Shown: piece after piece, positions 13,562 through 57,985 of the stretch
How the letters are laid out: each line of letters starts with the position of its first letter
Position numbering within the stretch: position 1 is the first letter of the stretch
From: Minisyncoccota bacterium
Lineage (GTDB): Bacteria > Patescibacteriota > Minisyncoccia > Phycocordibacterales > PALSA-1337
Assembly (NCBI GenBank): GCA_041663145.1
Contig: JBAZRG010000001.1
Coordinates: 254,984 to 318,983, forward strand
DNA: 64,000 nt
Direction of reading: 5' to 3'
Program-made: the position numbers and the translations under genes
The notes under the pieces: model-generated
Seen by the model: the letters and a program-made list of their open reading frames with translations, nothing else
The model's database searches: none
Told to the model about the DNA's origin: nothing

Positions 13562-13571
13562 GAGTATCGTA

Positions 13572-13740
13572 ACCCCCCCCCACCACACCTTAATTTGTTT
13601 TCCTCGAACTCTACTCACAATATACCAACATTTTCACAAAGGACTCTCTACAGGGATTCGCGAGTCCTTTGGAAAATGTGTTGGTATATTGTTTCGCAGA
13701 TTATTCTCGGAATACAAATTAAGATGTGGTGGGGGGGTTA
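13572..13740. repeat. about 170 bp nested imperfect palindrome with 27 bp terminal inverted repeats (poly-C / poly-G ends)
   Basis: AACCCCCCCCCACCACACCTTAATTTGT ... ACAAATTAAGATGTGGTGGGGGGGTT; internal perfect 22 bp IR (CCAACATTTTCACAAAGGACTC/GAGTCCTTTGGAAAATGTGTTGG). Confidence 0.7.
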
Positions 13741-15094: not shown

Positions 15095-15315
15095 ATCACA
15101 ATCCACAACTTATACCGAGTTATGAACAGTTTATCCAGAGAATTATCCAGAATTTTTGTTTGACTTTTTATCTCACTCGACTAAACTGACTACAGGCACA
15201 CTTACAGGAGAGGATCCTAAATATCCATATAGGAGTCCACAACAATGCGACCTAGTCGCTTCAGGACACCACCTACAATTTCGCGATTACTCTCCATGTA
15301 CCGGTGGCCATTATG

Positions 15316-15347
15316 GCAAAACATCCCGCTTCGGCGGGATGTTTTGC
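15316..15347. other. 12-13 bp stem with UUCG tetraloop inside GC-rich non-coding region
   Basis: GCAAAACATCCCGC-TTCG-GCGGGATGTTTTGC; no flanking U-run. Confidence 0.5.
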
Positions 15348-15698
15348 GCACGCACCAATTTGCACTAGCTCGCGTTAACCTAAAATACTCCCAATACTAC
15401 ACTGTTGGAGGAGTTTCGGGTGTTGTCGGCTGTGTTGGAGCCGTATTTGGCTGTTTTGCCATGTTATTAAAAGCGGGTTGATTAGCTCCCGCACAGTCGC
15501 GCCTAATTGCGCAACGGAGATGATTATATCATCGGGTCAATATGATCCAGCTTTGCCTCAGAAAATTGACATCTCGTCAAAACGATAGTCCAATTCTGGC
15601 TTCATTTCGTACTCCTACGGCATGATGTAATTTGTCTAAAAATTTCGACATGTCTATATGGTTCCAGTCAATAAATAACGATGGAATATTTATATATA

Positions 15699-15844
15699 GA
15701 CCCCAACATAATGTTCCCGCCACAATCCTGCGTAATCGCTTCTCAAATTACAGCCGTGTTTGGTTCCAGGGCTTCACCAAACACGGGTAATTTTTCGAAG
15801 CTCAATCGCAACTCGGATTGTTTCGGGAACATTATGTTGGGGTC
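15699..15844. mobile_element. MITE copy A (inverted relative to copies B and C)
   Basis: GACCCCAACATAATGTTCCCG 21 bp terminal inverted repeats; about 95% identical to the reverse complement of copies at 42332 and 57773. Confidence 0.8.
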
Positions 15845-15857
15845 TTACGATAACCAA

Positions 15858-16604
15858 TTACTTGACCTTACCCTGATTCTTAACTGTCTCCATCGCCTGT
15901 TCCAATACAGCCTCGTCGGCAAGATAGTGTTTTGATATAGGCTTCATATCGGCATCCAATTCATAGACCAAAGGAATACCAGTAGGAATATTTAGTCCAA
16001 CAATATCTGTATCGGACATATTATCTAGGTGTTTTACAAGAGCTCGTAGACTATTTCCCGAAGCGGCGATGATAATCTTTTTGCCACTCTTTATCTCTGG
16101 AACAATTTCATTATTCCAATACGGCAATACCCTAGTCACAACATCTTTCAGATTTTCCGAAAGTGGTATGTCTTTTTTATCCAAATCTTTATAGAGAGAG
16201 TCGTTGGCAAAGAAATATTGACTATCGGGCTTCATAGGCGGAATAGCTGTATCATATCCTCGTCTCCAAAGTTCTACTTGCTTCTCACCAAACTCCGATG
16301 CCGTCTCGGCCTTATTGAGACCAGTCAAAGCTCCATAGTGTCTCTCATTTAGTCTCCAGGATTTACGAATCTCGATTCCCTTTTCATCGAGTTCTTCTAG
16401 AACGATATCGAGTGTCCTTACCGCACGCTTCAACAATGAAGTAAAAGCCAAGTCAAAAGTAAATCCAGCCTCTCGCAAGGATCGTCCGGCTGTATGTGCC
16501 TCACTCACACCCTGTTCTGTAAGATCGACATCAACCCAACCAGTAAACCTATTCTCTTTATTCCACTGACTTTGTCCGTGGCGAATCAAAATTATTTTAT
16601 ACAT
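15858..16604 (-). CDS. gpmA: 2,3-bisphosphoglycerate-dependent phosphoglycerate mutase
   Basis: 248 aa; RHGQSQWN catalytic His motif. Confidence 0.9.
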   Translation of the reverse strand: MYKIILIRHGQSQWNKENRFTGWVDVDLTEQGVSEAHTAGRSLREAGFTFDLAFTSLLKRAVRTLDIVLEELDEKGIEIRKSWRLNERHYGALTGLNKAETASEFGEKQVELWRRGYDTAIPPMKPDSQYFFANDSLYKDLDKKDIPLSENLKDVVTRVLPYWNNEIVPEIKSGKKIIIAASGNSLRALVKHLDNMSDTDIVGLNIPTGIPLVYELDADMKPISKHYLADEAVLEQAMETVKNQGKVK

Positions 16605-18922: not shown

Positions 18923-19030
18923 ACTATAGCATATGCATGAGTGGGTTGTCAATACTTTGACGATTCCGTCAAATATGTGCCATGGTATGGCTCTGTTAAG
19001 ACACTCTGTAAACCACGGTCGTGATTCGCC
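18923..19030 (-). repeat. R1: conserved ~105 nt promoter/operator module (copy 1 of 3)
   Basis: On minus strand TTGACA-18-TGnTATAGT; upstream palindrome TTTGACGATTCCGTCAAA; about 90% identical to R2 and R3. Confidence 0.6.
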
Positions 19031-19058
19031 TACTACCAATTATATTTACCATACGCAG

Positions 19059-19634: not shown

Positions 19635-19745
19635 TGACTTATCCTTTCTTTGGTTTGTTTTGGTTAAATCTAGCTCTCAAAAGACAAATTTCTACCTTTT
19701 CGGAGCTAGACTTAGCCGTTCTCAATGACCTGATCTTCTGTAATA

Positions 19746-19849
19746 AGTATAGCATTTCTAACACTATTTGTCAATACTTTGACGATTTCGTCAAATACAT
19801 GCGGTATGGCTCTGTTAAGACACTCTGTAAACCACGGTCGTGATTCGCC
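19746..19849 (-). repeat. R2: conserved promoter/operator module (copy 2 of 3)
   Basis: TTGACA-17-TGcTATACT on minus strand; perfect palindrome TTTGACGATTTCGTCAAA. Confidence 0.6.
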
Positions 19850-19871
19850 TCCTCTCCACATTCTCAATTAT

Positions 19872-20432: not shown

Positions 20433-20458
20433 GATTTGAGTATAACAATATTAGAGTG

Positions 20459-20510
20459 CCCGCACTACTTCGCAATTTGTCCTTTTAGACAAATTGCGAA
20501 GTAGTGCGGG
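20459..20510. repeat. perfect 23 bp-stem hairpin; its right arm plus TGCGGGT duplicates the tRNA-Gly trailer/3' end (DR-left)
   Basis: CCCGCACTACTTCGCAATTTGTC-ctttta-GACAAATTGCGAAGTAGTGCGGG; 39 nt (20473-20511) identical to 21933-21971. Confidence 0.8.
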
Positions 20511-20625
20511 TTGTGGTACGAAGTTGGATCCTTTTTGGCATTGAAGACTTTAGCATAAAAGGAAAACCGCATCGATCGAGATGCGGCTTGAAGATTTTAG
20601 CGAGTTCTTCAACTCGGTAGATAAA

Positions 20626-21246: not shown

Positions 21247-21406
21247 CCTTTCTTCACCTGATAGGTGACGAAATTCGTGCTGCCCGCACGTTGAGGGTGC
21301 CAGAGGACTAACACGTCAGTGTGTTTCGTCATAGCAGAGAATGGCCCAAACGAGCCGCTTTCTGCTATGACGAATGTAAGTAATTTCAATGACCTATACT
21401 GCTACA

Positions 21407-21513
21407 AGTATAGCATTTTTAACACTACTTGTCAATTCTTTGACGATTTCGTCAAATGTGTGTCGCCATAGGGCTCTGTTAAGCCACCTTGTAAACCACG
21501 GTCGTTATTCGCC
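21407..21513 (-). repeat. R3: conserved promoter/operator module (copy 3 of 3)
   Basis: TTGACA-17-TGcTATACT; TTTGACGATTTCGTCAAA palindrome. Confidence 0.6.
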
Positions 21514-21587
21514 CCCACTCGACTATCTTTGGAGGTTAGTTCCTTCTTCGCTCTTCGCAAAGCTCGGAGCTACGAAGGACAAGCACC

Positions 21588-21827: not shown

Positions 21828-21964
21828 ATTAAAATATTAACAGATCGTGTCCTTCTACGCTAAAGCTTCGAAGGACTACTTCGCAATTTTTATAATAATC
21901 TTCGTGATACTCATTGTGCCTGCACTTCGAAGCAATTTGTCCTTTTAGACAAATTGCGAAGTAG

Positions 21965-22035
21965 TGCGGGTAGCGAGAATCGAACTCGCGTCTCAACCTT
22001 GGGAAGGTCGCATTCTGCCACTAAACCATACCCGC
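21965..22035 (-). tRNA. tRNA-Gly (anticodon CCC)
   Basis: GCGGGTA acceptor, anticodon loop TTCCCAA, T-arm CGCGAG-TTCGATT-CTCGC; followed by conserved trailer hairpin. Confidence 0.8.
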
Positions 22036-32581: not shown

Positions 32582-32739
32582 TAGGAGCTTAGTGAACATT
32601 GTTCCTCATCTCCTCGCAAGGTCACCCACTCCAAATTGCAACCACATATCAGCAGATGGAACTACTGATATGTGGGCAATTTGTTCGGGGTTCGAATCGC
32701 ATTGCGAGTCGTTTCGGAACAATATTCACTAAGCTCCTA
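32582..32739 (+). ncRNA. S-element copy 1: extended hairpin with conserved 12 nt loop and T-loop-like motif (candidate structured RNA, strand uncertain)
   Basis: Outer 24 bp IR, conserved internal sequences, inner 11 bp stem, loop CAGATGGAACTA; covaries with copy at 50960-51117. Confidence 0.5.
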
Positions 32740-38883: not shown

Positions 38884-39897
38884 TTGACCTCGCTGAAAAA
38901 TGGTAAAATTACTTCCATGAAAGAAACGAGAAATATTATCATGTATGAATCGTCAGACAGCACATTAAAGCTGGAAGTGCCTATTGACGGTGAAACTGTA
39001 TGGCTATCTCAAAAGCAGATGGCTGAGCTTTTTGGTTGTACATCGGAGAATATCATTATTCATCTGAAAAATATCTACGATAGCGGTGAATTGACAGAAA
39101 AAGCAACTACTAAGGAATCCTTAGTAGTTCAAAAAGAAGGAAATAGAAGCGTAAAACGGGATATTCAGATATACAATCTTGATGCCATCATTTCACTTGG
39201 CTATCGCGTCAATTCAATTCGCGGCACACAATTTCGTATCTGGGCTACCAATAAATTGAAGGAGTATATTATCAAAGGTTTCGTGTTGGATGATGAAAGA
39301 TTGGCCGATGGTAAGAAGTCTAGATATTTCGACGAACTTCTTGAACGCATCAGAGCTATCCGCTCCAGTGAGCGAAATTTCTATCAAAAGATCACCGATA
39401 TATATGCAACTAGCGTTGACTATAACAAGGATGTAGAAACAACCAAAATGTTCTTTGCTACAATTCAAAACAAAATACATTTTGCTGTACACGGACATAC
39501 AGCAGCGGAGATCGTTTCCACACGCGCCGACGCAGGAAAAAAATACATGGGATTAACTAACTTCAAAGGTAAGATGGTACGGGAAAAAGACATTTCCATT
39601 GCCAAGAATTATCTGAATGAGGAAGAATTGAAACAACTCAACCTCATTGTTACCCTCTATCTAGACTTTGCCGAACTGCAAGCGAGTAATCGTCGAGCTA
39701 TGACTATGAAAGAATGGGTATCCAAACTAGATGATTTTCTGAAATTGAGCGAGAAACAAATCCTCTCTGGTGCCGGCAAGGTCAGCAAGGAAAAAGCTGA
39801 AGAAAAGGCGCGGAAGGAGTACGAAAAATATCGAAAGACTGAAGATGCGGCTTATATCTCTGATTTCGACAGACAAACGAAAAAATATTTGAAATAA
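38884..39897 (+). CDS. RhuM-family virulence/DNA-binding protein (COG3943)
   Basis: 337 aa; N-terminal region matches RhuM family; true start may be Met12 or Met20. Confidence 0.7.
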   Translation: MTSLKNGKITSMKETRNIIMYESSDSTLKLEVPIDGETVWLSQKQMAELFGCTSENIIIHLKNIYDSGELTEKATTKESLVVQKEGNRSVKRDIQIYNLDAIISLGYRVNSIRGTQFRIWATNKLKEYIIKGFVLDDERLADGKKSRYFDELLERIRAIRSSERNFYQKITDIYATSVDYNKDVETTKMFFATIQNKIHFAVHGHTAAEIVSTRADAGKKYMGLTNFKGKMVREKDISIAKNYLNEEELKQLNLIVTLYLDFAELQASNRRAMTMKEWVSKLDDFLKLSEKQILSGAGKVSKEKAEEKARKEYEKYRKTEDAAYISDFDRQTKKYLK

Positions 39898-39901
39898 GAT
39901 A

Positions 39902-39927
39902 TGTCCACTTTATGGGGTACGGATCAA
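39902..39927 (+). repeat. direct repeat DR-L of GC-rich mini-island (TGTCCACTTTATGGGGTACGGATCAA)
   Basis: 25/26 identical to 42028-42053. Confidence 0.75.
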
Positions 39928-42027: not shown

Positions 42028-42053
42028 TGTCCACTTTATGGGGTACAGATCAA
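42028..42053 (+). repeat. direct repeat DR-R of GC-rich mini-island
   Basis: TGTCCACTTTATGGGGTACAGATCAA. Confidence 0.75.
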
Positions 42054-42331: not shown

Positions 42332-42504
42332 AGACCCCAACATAATGTTCCCGAAACAATCCGAGTTGCGATTGAGCTTCGAAAAATTACCCGTGTTTGG
42401 TGAAGCCTTGGAACCAAACACGGTTGTAATTTGAGAAGCGATTACGCGATCGAGCACGATCGCCTACTGGGGAGGATTGTGGCGGGAACATTATGTTGGG
42501 GGTC
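42332..42504. mobile_element. MITE copy B (with 26 nt internal palindromic insertion)
   Basis: Same TIRs GACCCCAACATAATGTTCCCG / CGGGAACATTATGTTGGGGGTC. Confidence 0.8.
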
Positions 42505-42517
42505 TATATGTATATTC

Positions 42518-43429
42518 CTAGTTCATATTCATATCTGTACCTCTTAGTGCCGCAACCCTCTCTCCCACCGGCGGATGAGTCATGAAAAGTTTCGAGATGC
42601 CAGAAACTGACTTTGCGCCAAATGGACTCGAAATGAAGAGGTGCGCTGTTGCAGTGTTCGCACGCAACATCGGTGACCCGTAAGCGGAGATTTTTTCTAG
42701 AGCCGAAGCCAATCCTTCCGGATATCTGGTGAGGAGAGCACCACTAGCATCAGCTAGAAATTCCCTCTTCCTCGATATAGCAAGCTTGATAAGTTCAGCA
42801 ACAACCGGAGACAAAACAACAAAAACAATGCCGACCACAAAGAGGATGGCACCGAGTTGTCCCCCGCCACTCCTATTACTACTTCTTCTGCCACCTAATA
42901 TTCCGCGTGTAAATATATTTGCCAAGATCGAAATAAAACCAACCAAGACTACAACGACAGTCTGCAATAATATATCTCGATTCCCGATATGCGAAAGTTC
43001 GTGAGCTATAACTCCAGAGAGCTCATTCGTATCCATCATACCCAAAAGTCCGGTCGTGACTGCTATCGCGGCATGTTCCTTGTCACGACCAGTCGCAAAA
43101 GCATTTGGAGCTGAGTCTTCAATGATGTGAATACTCGGTGCTGGCAGACCTGCAGTTATTGAGAGATTATCCACTACACGAAACAATTCCGGATACTGTT
43201 CACTACTTGCCGGCTTGGCTCCAGCCAAAGCCAGAGATATTTTGTCCGAATACCAATAGCTCGTAACATTCATCACTAGAGCGAAAATGATCGCAACGTA
43301 TAGTATCACTTGTGCATCATAGTAGTAAGAGATAAACCAACCCAGAGCAATAACAACGACCAAGAAAACAGTCATGAGAAACCATGTTTTCCTTACATTG
43401 CTATCTTGATGTGAATACAGAGTCGACAT
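42518..43429 (-). CDS. htpX: zinc metalloprotease HtpX (M48)
   Basis: 303 aa; HELSHI HExxH motif, 4 TM. Confidence 0.85.
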   Translation of the reverse strand: MSTLYSHQDSNVRKTWFLMTVFLVVVIALGWFISYYYDAQVILYVAIIFALVMNVTSYWYSDKISLALAGAKPASSEQYPELFRVVDNLSITAGLPAPSIHIIEDSAPNAFATGRDKEHAAIAVTTGLLGMMDTNELSGVIAHELSHIGNRDILLQTVVVVLVGFISILANIFTRGILGGRRSSNRSGGGQLGAILFVVGIVFVVLSPVVAELIKLAISRKREFLADASGALLTRYPEGLASALEKISAYGSPMLRANTATAHLFISSPFGAKSVSGISKLFMTHPPVGERVAALRGTDMNMN

Positions 43430-50959: not shown

Positions 50960-51117
50960 GGAGAGCTCGGTGGATGTTGTGCTGACACAACCAGCAAGGT
51001 CACCCGCTCCAAATTGCAACCGTATTAGAGCAGATGGAACTACTCTAATACGGGCAATTTGTTCGGGGTTCAAATCGCATTGCAAGTCATGCAAAAACAG
51101 TATGTACCGAGCTCTTC
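50960..51117 (+). ncRNA. S-element copy 2 (candidate structured RNA, strand uncertain)
   Basis: Same conserved loop CAGATGGAACTA and conserved internal sequences as copy 1; inner stem CCGTATTAGAG/CTCTAATACGG; outer IR GGAGAGCTCGGT/ACCGAGCTCTTC. Confidence 0.5.
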
Positions 51118-51161: not shown

Positions 51162-52550
51162 TTACAATTGATCGATCATTGTTCGCTGAATGTTTTCGGC
51201 TTTAACCATCACACTATTGCCATAAAAAGCGTTTTTAGGAGCATTCCAATTTCCTCCAGCATAATATCGTAGTGCTGCCGTTCTCTCCGCAGTATATGTC
51301 TGTTTGGCGGCACCCAAATCCGTCAGATACATAGCCGAGGCCATAAAAGCATGTTCCGGGAACCAAGGGTTGGGCATACCTGATATTCCCAATAATTTCG
51401 CTACCCTATCTGCAACACTACTCACCCATGTCGATGGTATAAATTGAGCCGGTCCCATCGCTCCACCGTACCCACCAGTCGATAGAGGACAAGAGACGAG
51501 AGTTGCATAAGGATCGAGACCGAGCTCGTTGGTAATGGAAAGAAACGGTGCAACGTCTCTATCTGGCTTCATAACATTTGCTATTGGTGTTTTTGTGGTA
51601 ATTTTGATTCCAGCACCAGTGTCTTTATTTGCCAGATAACAAGAACCGACATATTTACCAAAAGTCGCATCTTTATCGAGACTTGATTCTTGAGCAAAAA
51701 TTGCCAAGAGAAATGCCGGTCGTATTCCTGTCCTCTTTTCGGCTTCAAGAGCATATTTGTACGCATCACCAAAAGGTATTTCAATAGCTCCAGCCAACTG
51801 GAACAGACTGGCCCTGATCATTGCCGCTTTGGCCTGTTTTTCAGCCAACAGCGTGGCATATGACTTTTCACTACCCTTACTCAAAGCCAAAAGTTTTTGT
51901 TTCTCTTTTTGATTTGCCGCTATGTTCTTTTGCTCCTGCTGTATCTCATATCTTGCGTCGATCTCGGCATTTCTTCGTTTATCAAGATCATTTTTTTCCG
52001 TAGTCGTTTCGTCCTGATCTGATCGCAATTGTTCGAAAGTACTTTTGAGTCCAGTTTGAACTGATTCGAAATAATCAATATCTTCGAAAAATTCAGACAA
52101 GTCCGATTGGGACAATAACATTTCCGGTACCGAATACTGATCCAACTCATTTGTCTTGCGCAATAAAACTGCCAAAGATTCTTTGCCTTTAGTGATTCGC
52201 ACCTCCAATTCATCGATGTGACTCTGTTTTTGATTTATGTCCTGACCAAGAGTCTGAATGCGCAGATTTTTTGCTTTGATATTGAGCTCGGCGGTCTTGA
52301 TTTTGGCGGTCAAAATAGCAATGTCTCGTGATAGTGAGGCACTTTGCCCCTTAGCAGTAGCTAGGTCTTTTTCAGCTTGTTTTTGTTCGGCCAGGACTTG
52401 TTCGAGAGCCTCTTCACAGGCAATCTTTTCAGCCGCAGTCTTACAGCTCATCGTTTCCGCATTTGAAATGTTGGCGAAAAATAAGGATGAAAAACAAACA
52501 ACCAGAAGCCCATACACGAGAAAGGTGGGCTTAAAGAAGTATTTCTTCAT
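51162..52550 (-). CDS. secreted coiled-coil protein with C-terminal lytic transglycosylase domain (MltB/family 3-like)
   Basis: Signal peptide from Met26; long coiled coil; GAMGPAQFIPSTW and AQESS motifs. Confidence 0.7.
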   Translation of the reverse strand: MKKYFFKPTFLVYGLLVVCFSSLFFANISNAETMSCKTAAEKIACEEALEQVLAEQKQAEKDLATAKGQSASLSRDIAILTAKIKTAELNIKAKNLRIQTLGQDINQKQSHIDELEVRITKGKESLAVLLRKTNELDQYSVPEMLLSQSDLSEFFEDIDYFESVQTGLKSTFEQLRSDQDETTTEKNDLDKRRNAEIDARYEIQQEQKNIAANQKEKQKLLALSKGSEKSYATLLAEKQAKAAMIRASLFQLAGAIEIPFGDAYKYALEAEKRTGIRPAFLLAIFAQESSLDKDATFGKYVGSCYLANKDTGAGIKITTKTPIANVMKPDRDVAPFLSITNELGLDPYATLVSCPLSTGGYGGAMGPAQFIPSTWVSSVADRVAKLLGISGMPNPWFPEHAFMASAMYLTDLGAAKQTYTAERTAALRYYAGGNWNAPKNAFYGNSVMVKAENIQRTMIDQL

Positions 52551-52628
52551 TGGATATACTGACATTATGATATTATAACCTATTTGGAGAATGGTTTGTG
52601 GCTTTTTGTGGCTTTTCCTGATCAACTA

Positions 52629-57150: not shown

Positions 57151-57696
57151 ATGGTTTTACCTGGACACATCGCCGGAGGATACCTCATCACAAAAGCATT
57201 GTTCAGTATTGCTCCACCATCTTTGTCACCGGAAGAAATTTCCATTTTATTATTTCTAGGGACAATATCGGGAGAAATACCGGATATAGATCTCATCTTC
57301 AGTCTATCAACAAAATATTTTAAAAGTAAATTTTTAAAATTTGATCATCGGGAACACATCACTCATGCTCCAATATTTTGGTTCACACTTTGCTTATTCA
57401 TGTTATTTGTCGGATATGTATCCGACTCTACGTTTGTAGTCTGGGCAAGTGTAGCTATATTTTTGGGAACAATGTCGCATTTTCTATTGGACAGCATCGA
57501 GTATGGTATTCGCTGGTTATGGCCGTTCACCAAAAGAAGATACGCCCTCATAGCAAACCCTAATGCAAATAGACCACGAGAACCGGTCACTGTATTCTAT
57601 TATTTGAATTATATAAAAACAGAATACATAGTTAGATTTTCCTTTTACGCTGAAATCGCAATCACTATAATAGCCATCATTGTTTTCTTAAGGTAA
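57151..57696 (+). CDS. membrane protein, YdjM/DUF457-like metal-dependent hydrolase candidate
   Basis: 181 aa; N-terminal MxxPGHIAGG and several TM helices. Confidence 0.4.
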   Translation: MVLPGHIAGGYLITKALFSIAPPSLSPEEISILLFLGTISGEIPDIDLIFSLSTKYFKSKFLKFDHREHITHAPIFWFTLCLFMLFVGYVSDSTFVVWASVAIFLGTMSHFLLDSIEYGIRWLWPFTKRRYALIANPNANRPREPVTVFYYLNYIKTEYIVRFSFYAEIAITIIAIIVFLR

Positions 57697-57772
57697 GACT
57701 GAGGATCAAAGTAAGCCCCTCACATCCTTATTTTGTATTCCGAGAATAATCTGCGGACTTTATGTCGTATTA

Positions 57773-57915
57773 CCCCCAACATAATGTTCCCGAAACAATC
57801 CGAGTTGCGATTGAGCTTCGAAAAATTACCCGTGTTTGGTGAAGCCTTGGAACCAAACACGGTTGTAATTTGAGAAGCGATTACGAGGATTGTGGCGGGA
57901 ACATTATGTTGGGGG
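57773..57915. mobile_element. MITE copy C (in the ftsZ upstream region)
   Basis: CCCCCAACATAATGTTCCCG ... CGGGAACATTATGTTGGGGG; flanked by TTA on both sides. Confidence 0.8.
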
Positions 57916-57985
57916 TTATACGATTATTTGATTTTACTTGTGTCTTCTAACTCCTGTGTTAATATACAACCTATCCAATACTTAT

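Follow-up and report, generated by a model that had tools for sequence, protein, structure and literature searches.

We report a family of short, non-coding hairpin repeats, termed F1, found in a stretch of 64,000 nucleotides of DNA (the window, by which we mean the whole of the stretch analysed) whose FtsZ is 100% identical to MFA6315080.1 from a Candidatus Paceibacterota bacterium MAG. Three copies of the repeat are present and all of them are intergenic, lying from a few to tens of bases past a stop codon. Copy A occupies the space between the convergent genes eno and gpmA, at a distance of 13 nt from the stop codon of gpmA and 604 nt from that of eno; copy B is found 13 nt downstream of a gene for an M48/HtpX protease (htpX), counted from its stop codon, and 108 nt 5' of a tRNA-Ser(GGA) gene; and copy C separates a YdjM-family gene from ftsZ, 76 nt past the stop of the former and 70 nt before the ATG of the latter (57986). 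These neighbours were confirmed with Pfam, which bears out the gene context (eno/gpmA, tRNA-Ser and the region upstream of ftsZ) given in the original prediction for this DNA. The coordinates of the repeats and of the features associated with them are collected in Table 1.

Table 1. Hairpin repeats of the window and the features associated with them
Feature	Position	Strand	Description
F2	13570..13740		~170-nt full-length hairpin, TAACCCCCCCCCACCACACC...GGTGGGGGGGTTA; C-run/G-run repeat; dG -86.9, z = -12
F1 copy A with flanks resembling those of copy B	15683..15857	-	GGAATATTTATATATA on one side, TTACGATAACCAA on the other
F1 copy A	15699..15844	- (inverted relative to B and C)	146 nt, core GACCCC...GGGGTC; repeats 15699-15719 and 15824-15844
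F3a	32582..32739	-	158-nt hairpin, TA-bracketed; diverged homologue of F1
F1 copy B	42333..42504	+	172 nt; repeats 42333-42353 and 42483-42504, with one extra G on the right
26-nt segment, copy B only	42447..42472	+	CGATCGAGCACGATCGCCTACTGGGG; unique in the window
F3b	50960..51117	-	diverged homologue of F1, with the convergent RNase J gene on one side and the gene at 51162-52625 on the other
F2 solo arm	57716..57755	+	flanked by the ydjM-like gene and copy C; 97% complementary over 29 nt to 13695-13723
Copy C, extended inverted repeat	57765-57923	+	TCGTATTA.../...TTATACGA
F1 copy C	57773..57915	+	143-nt core; TTA on both sides
Apical stem-loop, copy C	57830..57862	+	11-bp stem CCGTGTTTGGT / ACCAAACACGG, 11-nt loop
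Conserved block upstream of ftsZ	57936..57969	+	ACTTGTGT...CCTGTGnTAATATAC; conserved in the relatives L009 and L004

The gpmA stop codon (15858-15860) directly adjoins the unit formed by copy A and its flanks. On the other side of this copy, the 604-nt gap beyond the 3' end of eno (15095-15698) holds no convincing gene; it includes a 12-bp stem with a TTCG loop (at approximately 15296-15323), and its Rfam matches are at chance level only (istR and rsmX, E = 0.1-0.4).

Each copy of F1 has the 19-mer CCCCAACATAATGTTCCCG at both its ends, in inverted orientation, making six occurrences in the window where 0.02 are expected from shuffled sequences, and alignment over the full length shows that the similarity extends through the whole element. 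In a BLAST search of the window with copy C as the query, A, B and C were the sole matches; copy A is 97.9% identical to copy C over 142 nt, and copy B is 100% identical to it over 112 + 32 nt with a single indel between these blocks. A dispersed, non-coding repeat in three copies with terminal inverted repeats, as originally predicted, is therefore confirmed and its copies are indeed near-identical, the predicted figure of ~95% being too low against the measured 98-100%. The repeated ends are perfect, as had also been claimed, but the perfect repeat common to all the copies is a core of 19 nt rather than 21 bp. GA/TC is added to this core in A and B, while the tips of copy C are CCCCC/GGGGG without GA/TC.

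At 143-172 nt, the copies fall below the limit of ~400 bp for MITEs and have no transposase ORF inside them. Their G+C content is 47-49%, compared with 41.7% for the window. The peptide of a frame that is open by chance across F1 has no match among 5.8 billion protein clusters. The additional 26 nt ascribed to copy B were found as predicted and, together with the preceding G, form a 7-bp side hairpin, GCGATCG/CGATCGC. A cyanobacterial origin, suggested by the GCGATCG motifs of this insertion, was considered and rejected: GCGATCGC occurs once in the 64 kb and the proteins encoded are those of Paceibacterota.

Each copy of F1 is predicted to fold as one end-to-end hairpin, with folding z-scores of -11 to -13. 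For copy C the predicted energy is -92.4 kcal/mol, against -38 in shuffled sequences (z = -13), and both the opposite strand and copy B behave alike. The internal hairpin with a 10-bp stem that had been noted earlier is, hence, the tip of a much larger structure; its apical stem measures 11 bp and the entire element is one hairpin. The arms of F1 are ~73% identical to each other (63/86 aligned columns), and the subterminal block of each, AACAT-A/T-ATGTTCC, contains a palindrome of 11 bp. Promoter and intrinsic-terminator consensus sequences were sought in the copies and their surroundings, and none was seen within the elements. With Rfam 15, only the tRNAs of the window reach the gathering score, and permissive Rfam scans of F1, F2 and F3a gave only chance-level matches to hairpins of the microRNA type.

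F1 is not the isolated three-copy family that it was initially taken for, since the same window contains two diverged homologues, F3a and F3b, as well as a third hairpin family, F2. When F1 is compared arm by arm with the reverse strand of F3a, z-scores of 6.0 and 3.4 are obtained against dinucleotide shuffles, and the same comparison with F3b gives 4.2 and 4.2. With similarity that is significant in each arm, F3a and F3b are diverged homologues of F1 lying on the opposite strand; they are 74-79% identical to each other in a repeat search of the window. The similarity of F2 to F1 is marginal (p ~0.02 per arm) and F2 is probably a sister subfamily. Its position is 8-11 nt beyond the stop codon of an MFS gene and 65 nt before eno. 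TATCG precedes it, as found at the ends of F1, and the adjoining external sequence TATCGTAA is a match to the flanks of F1 ends. Whether GGTAAGAC and the sequences flanking copy C represent a degraded copy of F1 was also considered; this similarity is not significant and the real repeat at that position is the F2-type arm.

An alignment of F1 copies C and A with F3a and F3b yields a consensus hairpin of 52 pairs, in which 96% of the cells are paired. Compensatory changes are found in 23 of the 52 pairs; none of 500 shuffles reaches this number, and sliding the partners by 1-3 columns leaves 2-4 such pairs. Coming from four sequences, with the structure derived from the same four, this covariation is supportive of the hairpin and is not formal proof of it. 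It is clear, nonetheless, in the apical stems: those of F1, F3a and F3b differ in sequence, completely so between F3a and F3b, yet each of CCGTGTTTGGT, CCACATATCAG and CCGTATTAGAG is perfectly paired. The tips of the repeats likewise differ by subfamily (GACCCC, CCCCCCC and TAGGAGC/GGAGAGC). A covariance model built from the F1/F3 alignment recovers the five F1 and F3 elements in the window and no extra members in ~84 kb of the loci of relatives. With its filters off the model scores F2 at 30.9 bits, which is no better than a generic 56-nt hairpin. In each of the six elements the predicted fold of the modelled strand is more stable than that of its complement, by 0.5-15 kcal/mol; the modelled strand corresponds to the sense strand of the gene upstream in the case of A, C, F3a and arguably F3b, whereas in B and F2 it does not.

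We examined the sequences just outside the repeats in order to define the ends of the element and any duplication of the target. Copies A and B are alike beyond their repeats. Of the 24-nt flanks, those on the right have a local alignment score of 12, higher than all of 4000 null pairs (GGAATATTTATATATAGA resembling GGAATATACATATAGAC), and those on the left have a score of 8, with p ~0.02-0.05 (TTGGTTATCGTAAGA resembling TTGGAGTTACGGTAAGA). The stretches involved are 13-24 nt long and ~70-80% alike, and are either an outer part of the element or a preferred target. A preferred target explains them better than a longer mobile unit does, given that this similarity is far below the 98-100% of the interior, though three copies cannot decide the matter. 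Beyond ~24 nt the flanks of the copies are unrelated, so that the argument drawn from them against a segmental duplication holds at that distance but not immediately outside the repeat, where A and B are similar. No joined-flank empty site of A, B or C was found within the window. The last codons of htpX, AAC TAG (3' end of the gene at 42518-42530), lie inside a stretch that resembles the flank of copy A, and the C-terminus of HtpX, ...ALRGTDMNMN, exceeds that of most close homologues by 2-4 residues; the insertion of copy B, or its target, may have reshaped this C-terminus.

The inverted repeat of copy C can be followed outwards as far as TCGTAT(T/A)A, giving arms of 37 nt that are 92% complementary. 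The TTA on both sides of this copy, proposed as a possible target duplication, is present, but in this copy only; A and B are flanked by TAA...TAT and the flank that is general is TA. Furthermore, the TTA of copy C also fits a part of the 37-nt imperfect inverted repeat, or an outer duplication of TA within the palindrome TCG-TA-CGA. TA occurs within one base at both ends of five of the six elements (F1 A-C, F2 and F3a), its frequency in the window being 0.063. Since TA is its own reverse complement, such a bracket is indistinguishable from an extension of the inverted repeat; the TAA/TTA of F2 is an inverted, not a direct, repeat. Enzymes of the IS630/Tc1-mariner type duplicate TA, and TA is the best candidate for a target duplication here, one which would point to an enzyme of this type. 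The pentamer TCGTA, with a frequency of 0.001 per position, stands just outside four of nine ends (the left end of A, both ends of C and the left end of F2), for which we estimate a chance of ~3e-8 from the frequency of the motif. Because of these TCGTA motifs and the similarity of A and B beyond the repeat, the 21-bp repeat is not proven to mark the ends of the element and its description as the true termini could not be upheld.

Related genomes and an independent assembly were used to examine whether the copies are recent arrivals and whether they are correctly assembled. The order ftsA-ydjM-ftsZ is kept in L009 (Logan ERR6221074; FtsZ 85% identical), where the ydjM-ftsZ spacer is 54 bp and contains no element. 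The same spacer in the window is 289 bp, of which at least 183 bp is derived from repeats, so that copy C and the 40-nt solo arm of F2 account for almost all of the extra length relative to L009. In three further relatives (L011-L013; HtpX 76-78% identical), htpX is followed by tRNA-Ser(GGA) without the element. These empty-site comparisons are made between species, not strains, and show absence of the element rather than base-exact borders.

The block that is conserved upstream of ftsZ contains a -35-like TTGTGT, a spacer of 16 nt and an extended -10, TGtTAATAT, motifs by which it probably represents the promoter of ftsZ. The end of copy C is 20 nt away from the block, on its upstream side; the placement of this copy in the ftsZ promoter region was thus correct in that it lies upstream of ftsZ, but it stands outside the conserved promoter block itself. 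The YdjM-family gene at 57151-57696 occurs between ftsA and ftsZ in the window and in L009, in a comparison with L004, L005 and L006; it is absent from GCA_002413065, where the gap between ftsA and ftsZ is 91 bp.

Four Logan contigs of SRR18595301 carry genes of the window with identical products and stop 24-30 nt inside the repeat. They cover four of the six junctions between repeat and flank, namely both junctions of A (L002 and L008), the left junction of C (L007) and the right junction of B (L010); L002 begins inside F2. A Logan contig for an end gene of the window, L014, stays within the limits of the window. In Logan, contigs are assembled with k = 31 and no 31-mer occurs more than once in an accession (PMC12424806), and a contig accordingly ends where a 30-mer becomes shared. 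The break in L008 is located exactly where A and B start to share a 30-mer. Those in L002, L007 and L010 are unexplained by the copies in the window and imply that the sample holds further copies of F1 with those end variants. From this assembly rule we infer that more copies of F1 exist outside the window in the SRR18595301 sample.

Outside this genome, no element with the exact 19-mer was detected among 185,579 species-representative genomes, the JGI metagenomes and IMG/VR, a search by exact match that would miss diverged relatives. Matches to the 19-mer in L001 and L003 are single and one-ended and were attributed to chance. A full-length partner element with the ends of F1 was sought by exact scans of genomes, metagenomes and viral contigs, and none was seen; nor did a degenerate pattern of the F1/F3 core match viral contigs, or blastn of the element match plasmids or phages. 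Among the papers searched, none described MITEs in Patescibacteria/CPR.

Several well-described classes of small bacterial repeat provide points of comparison. Correia elements have terminal inverted repeats of ~20-26 bp, TA flanks, and a longer and a shorter form distinguished by the presence of an internal segment, and they form a long hairpin when transcribed; no cognate transposase is known for them. For RUP, mobilisation by an enzyme of the IS630 type, which duplicates TA, has been suggested, and Nezha shares its repeats and direct repeats with the insertion sequence ISNpu3. REP units are G+C-rich imperfect palindromes of 20-40 nt with a conserved 5' motif of the GTAG type. Doublets of such units, the REPINs, are full-length hairpins with two inverted conserved ends, found in extragenic positions near the ends of genes, falling into subfamilies with compensated pairing and mobilised by RAYT.

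Correia elements (CREE/NEMIS, from Neisseria) are small non-coding repeat elements whose size and class are reviewed by Delihas (2011; PMC3184786). They resemble F1 as non-coding intergenic repeats of ~100-160 bp with terminal inverted repeats, TA flanks, internal-segment variants and long RNA hairpins. F1, however, has no apparent sequence relation to them and a CPR host, it is palindromic throughout and not at its ends only, with pairing kept between subfamilies by compensatory change, and no internal promoter or IHF site was found in it. RUP of S. pneumoniae and the ERIC/IRU-type MITEs of Enterobacteriaceae and Photorhabdus are imperfect palindromes of 107-127 bp with a TA motif at both termini (PMC3184786). 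They are like F1 in these respects and in their inverted-repeat ends, but lack any sequence similarity to it, and a cognate IS has been proposed for RUP. The Nezha MITEs of Anabaena/Nostoc, at 130-170 bp, have inverted repeats and very stable predicted hairpins, and their mobility was inferred from filled and empty sites (PMC3184786). Size, hairpin and the type of filled/empty-site evidence are shared with F1, although the relatives that supply the empty sites for F1 are only ~85% identical in FtsZ and their intergenic DNA is not alignable base by base. The REP/RAYT system (PMC2817692) offers, in the REPINs, a full-length hairpin with inverted ends, positions at gene ends, subfamily diversification and compensated pairing, all of which are seen in F1. 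Unlike REPINs, F1 has no GTAG and no strong G+C-rich REP palindrome, is larger, is bracketed by TA and is unaccompanied by a RAYT gene in the window. On the best reading of these comparisons, the F1, F3 and F2 elements appear closest in behaviour to the Correia, RUP/ERIC and Nezha elements.

We therefore consider it probable that F1 is a young, recently amplified subfamily within a diversified superfamily of fold-back mobile elements that are non-autonomous, or MITEs in the broad sense, which reside in an uncultured member of Candidatus Paceibacterota and are moved in trans. The original reading of F1 as a MITE is retained inasmuch as the element is small, non-coding, dispersed, recently amplified, bounded by inverted repeats and absent in relatives; what was said of its duplication, ends, isolation and promoter fails as written. 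An identity of 98-100% between the copies indicates recent or ongoing transposition in this genome, and the solo F2 arm beside copy C fits a turnover of such elements. In the mechanism we propose, a transposase encoded elsewhere would move the copies, recognising the subterminal block at both ends and inserting them at TA in AT-rich DNA, with an apparent preference for (T)CG-TA contexts and most likely with duplication of TA as by enzymes of the IS630/Tc1-mariner type. Read-through RNA from a neighbouring gene would then carry a hairpin of ~55-65 bp, which could process or stabilise the 3' end of the mRNA. Copy C would spare the conserved block upstream of ftsZ and mainly serve to separate ftsZ from upstream read-through.

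Some of the evidence stands against this fold-back element. No transposase, integrase or HUH domain was detected in the 58 large ORFs of the window, the exact scans show no full-length partner with the ends of F1, there is no clean target duplication common to the copies, and both the outer similarity of A and B and the TCGTA motifs lie beyond the presumed ends. Tips that differ between subfamilies are unusual for the substrates of one DDE enzyme and the hairpin itself, judging by covariation along its entire length, seems to be under selection, of which classical cut-and-paste MITEs have no need. The main rival is a REPIN-like, hairpin-dependent element, in favour of which stand this covariation, the variation of the tips and the absence of any clean direct repeat. 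Single-stranded DNA would in this case be moved without duplication, either by an enzyme of the HUH/Y1 class (RAYT or IS200/IS605-like) or by one of another kind that recognises the fold-back together with a one-sided sequence cue. The elements are palindromic over their whole length (96% of cells paired across subfamilies, 23 compensatory pairs), each arm holds a small palindrome of its own, one strand folds better in 6/6 elements, and TCGTA/GTAA stands on one side of A, B and F2, as for insertion beside a fixed short target. We nevertheless think this rival rather unlikely. The REP signature of the GTAG type is missing, the arm palindrome AACAT-A-ATGTT is A/T-rich and, with 4-5 pairs, too weak for a REP hairpin, the window has no gene for RAYT or TnpA, the elements exceed typical REPINs in length, and the TA around nearly all the copies fits a TA-duplicating DDE enzyme better. 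A broader and more speculative proposal, which we hold to be unlikely, is that F1, F3 and F2 together form a superfamily specific to CPR, whose members depend on the hairpin for their mobility and not on the classical DDE mechanism of repeat plus duplication; the fold-back and one conserved arm would be under selection, and copies would have been co-opted as RNA hairpins at the ends of genes. If true, it would explain the whole-length covariation, the strand asymmetry of folding, the differing tips and the missing clean duplication, and the co-opted hairpins would serve in termination, processing or stabilisation in a streamlined genome.

The position of the elements could instead reflect functional hairpin RNAs (terminators, RNase III sites, message stabilisers or small RNAs) that are kept by selection and spread by occasional duplication. 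All six lie 8-76 nt downstream of a stop codon, their structure is conserved with covariation, and one strand folds better by 0.5-15 kcal/mol in every one of them; in A, C and F3a this strand has the sense orientation of the gene upstream, a relation that F3b also fits. This proximity to stop codons is, however, largely forced by short intergenic gaps; copy B is oriented antisense to the gene upstream of it and neither does F2 have the sense orientation, no promoter or intrinsic-terminator consensus and no Rfam family was found, and 98-100% identity in unrelated surroundings, with absence in relatives, points to recent copying and not to old genes. Such an origin therefore seems improbable. 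Even less credence can be given to two other readings. The ends of F1, CCCCAAC...GTTGGGG, resemble the RYYYAAC/GTTRRRY cores of integron attC sites, which measure ~60-140 nt and are defined by an unpaired spacer and extrahelical bases, and the size, imperfect dyad symmetry and AAC/GTT ends are superficially alike. Yet the outer stem of F1 is a perfect duplex of 19-21 bp free of bulges, unpaired spacer and extrahelical bases, CCCCAAC/GTTGGGG miss the core consensus at its first and last positions, F3 and F2 lack the AAC/GTT tips, and the copies are 15-26 kb apart, in both orientations and among housekeeping genes, with neither a cassette array nor an integrase in the window; an attC-like site is accordingly very improbable. 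An assembly artefact, or a segmental duplication including the flanks, is equally hard to credit. The source is a MAG and repeats invite mis-joins, but four of the six flank-repeat junctions recur in the independent k = 31 assembly, gene order across B and C matches that of relatives, and the flanks are unrelated beyond ~24 nt.

Genomes of the CPR/Patescibacteria are small and are usually described as repeat-poor. Here, at least six full-length hairpin elements and a fragment, belonging to one or two superfamilies, make up ~1.5% of 64 kb. Such elements break short-read assemblies of this organism exactly at their ends, which bears on the quality of MAGs, and they place potential RNA hairpins of ~55-65 bp immediately 3' of gpmA and htpX and a short distance upstream of the probable ftsZ promoter, where they are candidates for a role in termination or processing. 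The general understanding of bacterial MITEs is unchanged by F1.

Other repeats were noted in the window. Direct repeats of 26 nt at 39902-39927 and 42028-42053, 96% identical, surround a segment of 2.1 kb with a G+C content of ~47.6% and ORFs without Pfam matches, located between a RhuM-family gene (38884-39897) and the tRNA-Ser gene; this segment may be a small integrated element with att-like repeats. Intergenic repeats at 18946-19047, 19765-19866 and 21429-21530 (also 19738-19796 and 21399-21457) are 62-90% identical and surround several small genes of unknown function, and the Logan contig L008 begins in the first of them. Finally, two near-perfect palindromes of 56 nt (20456-20511 and 21916-21971; GTGCCCGCACTACTTCGCAATTTGTCC...) are 91% alike, the second adjoining a tRNA-Gly gene, and may be bidirectional terminators or another small repeat family.
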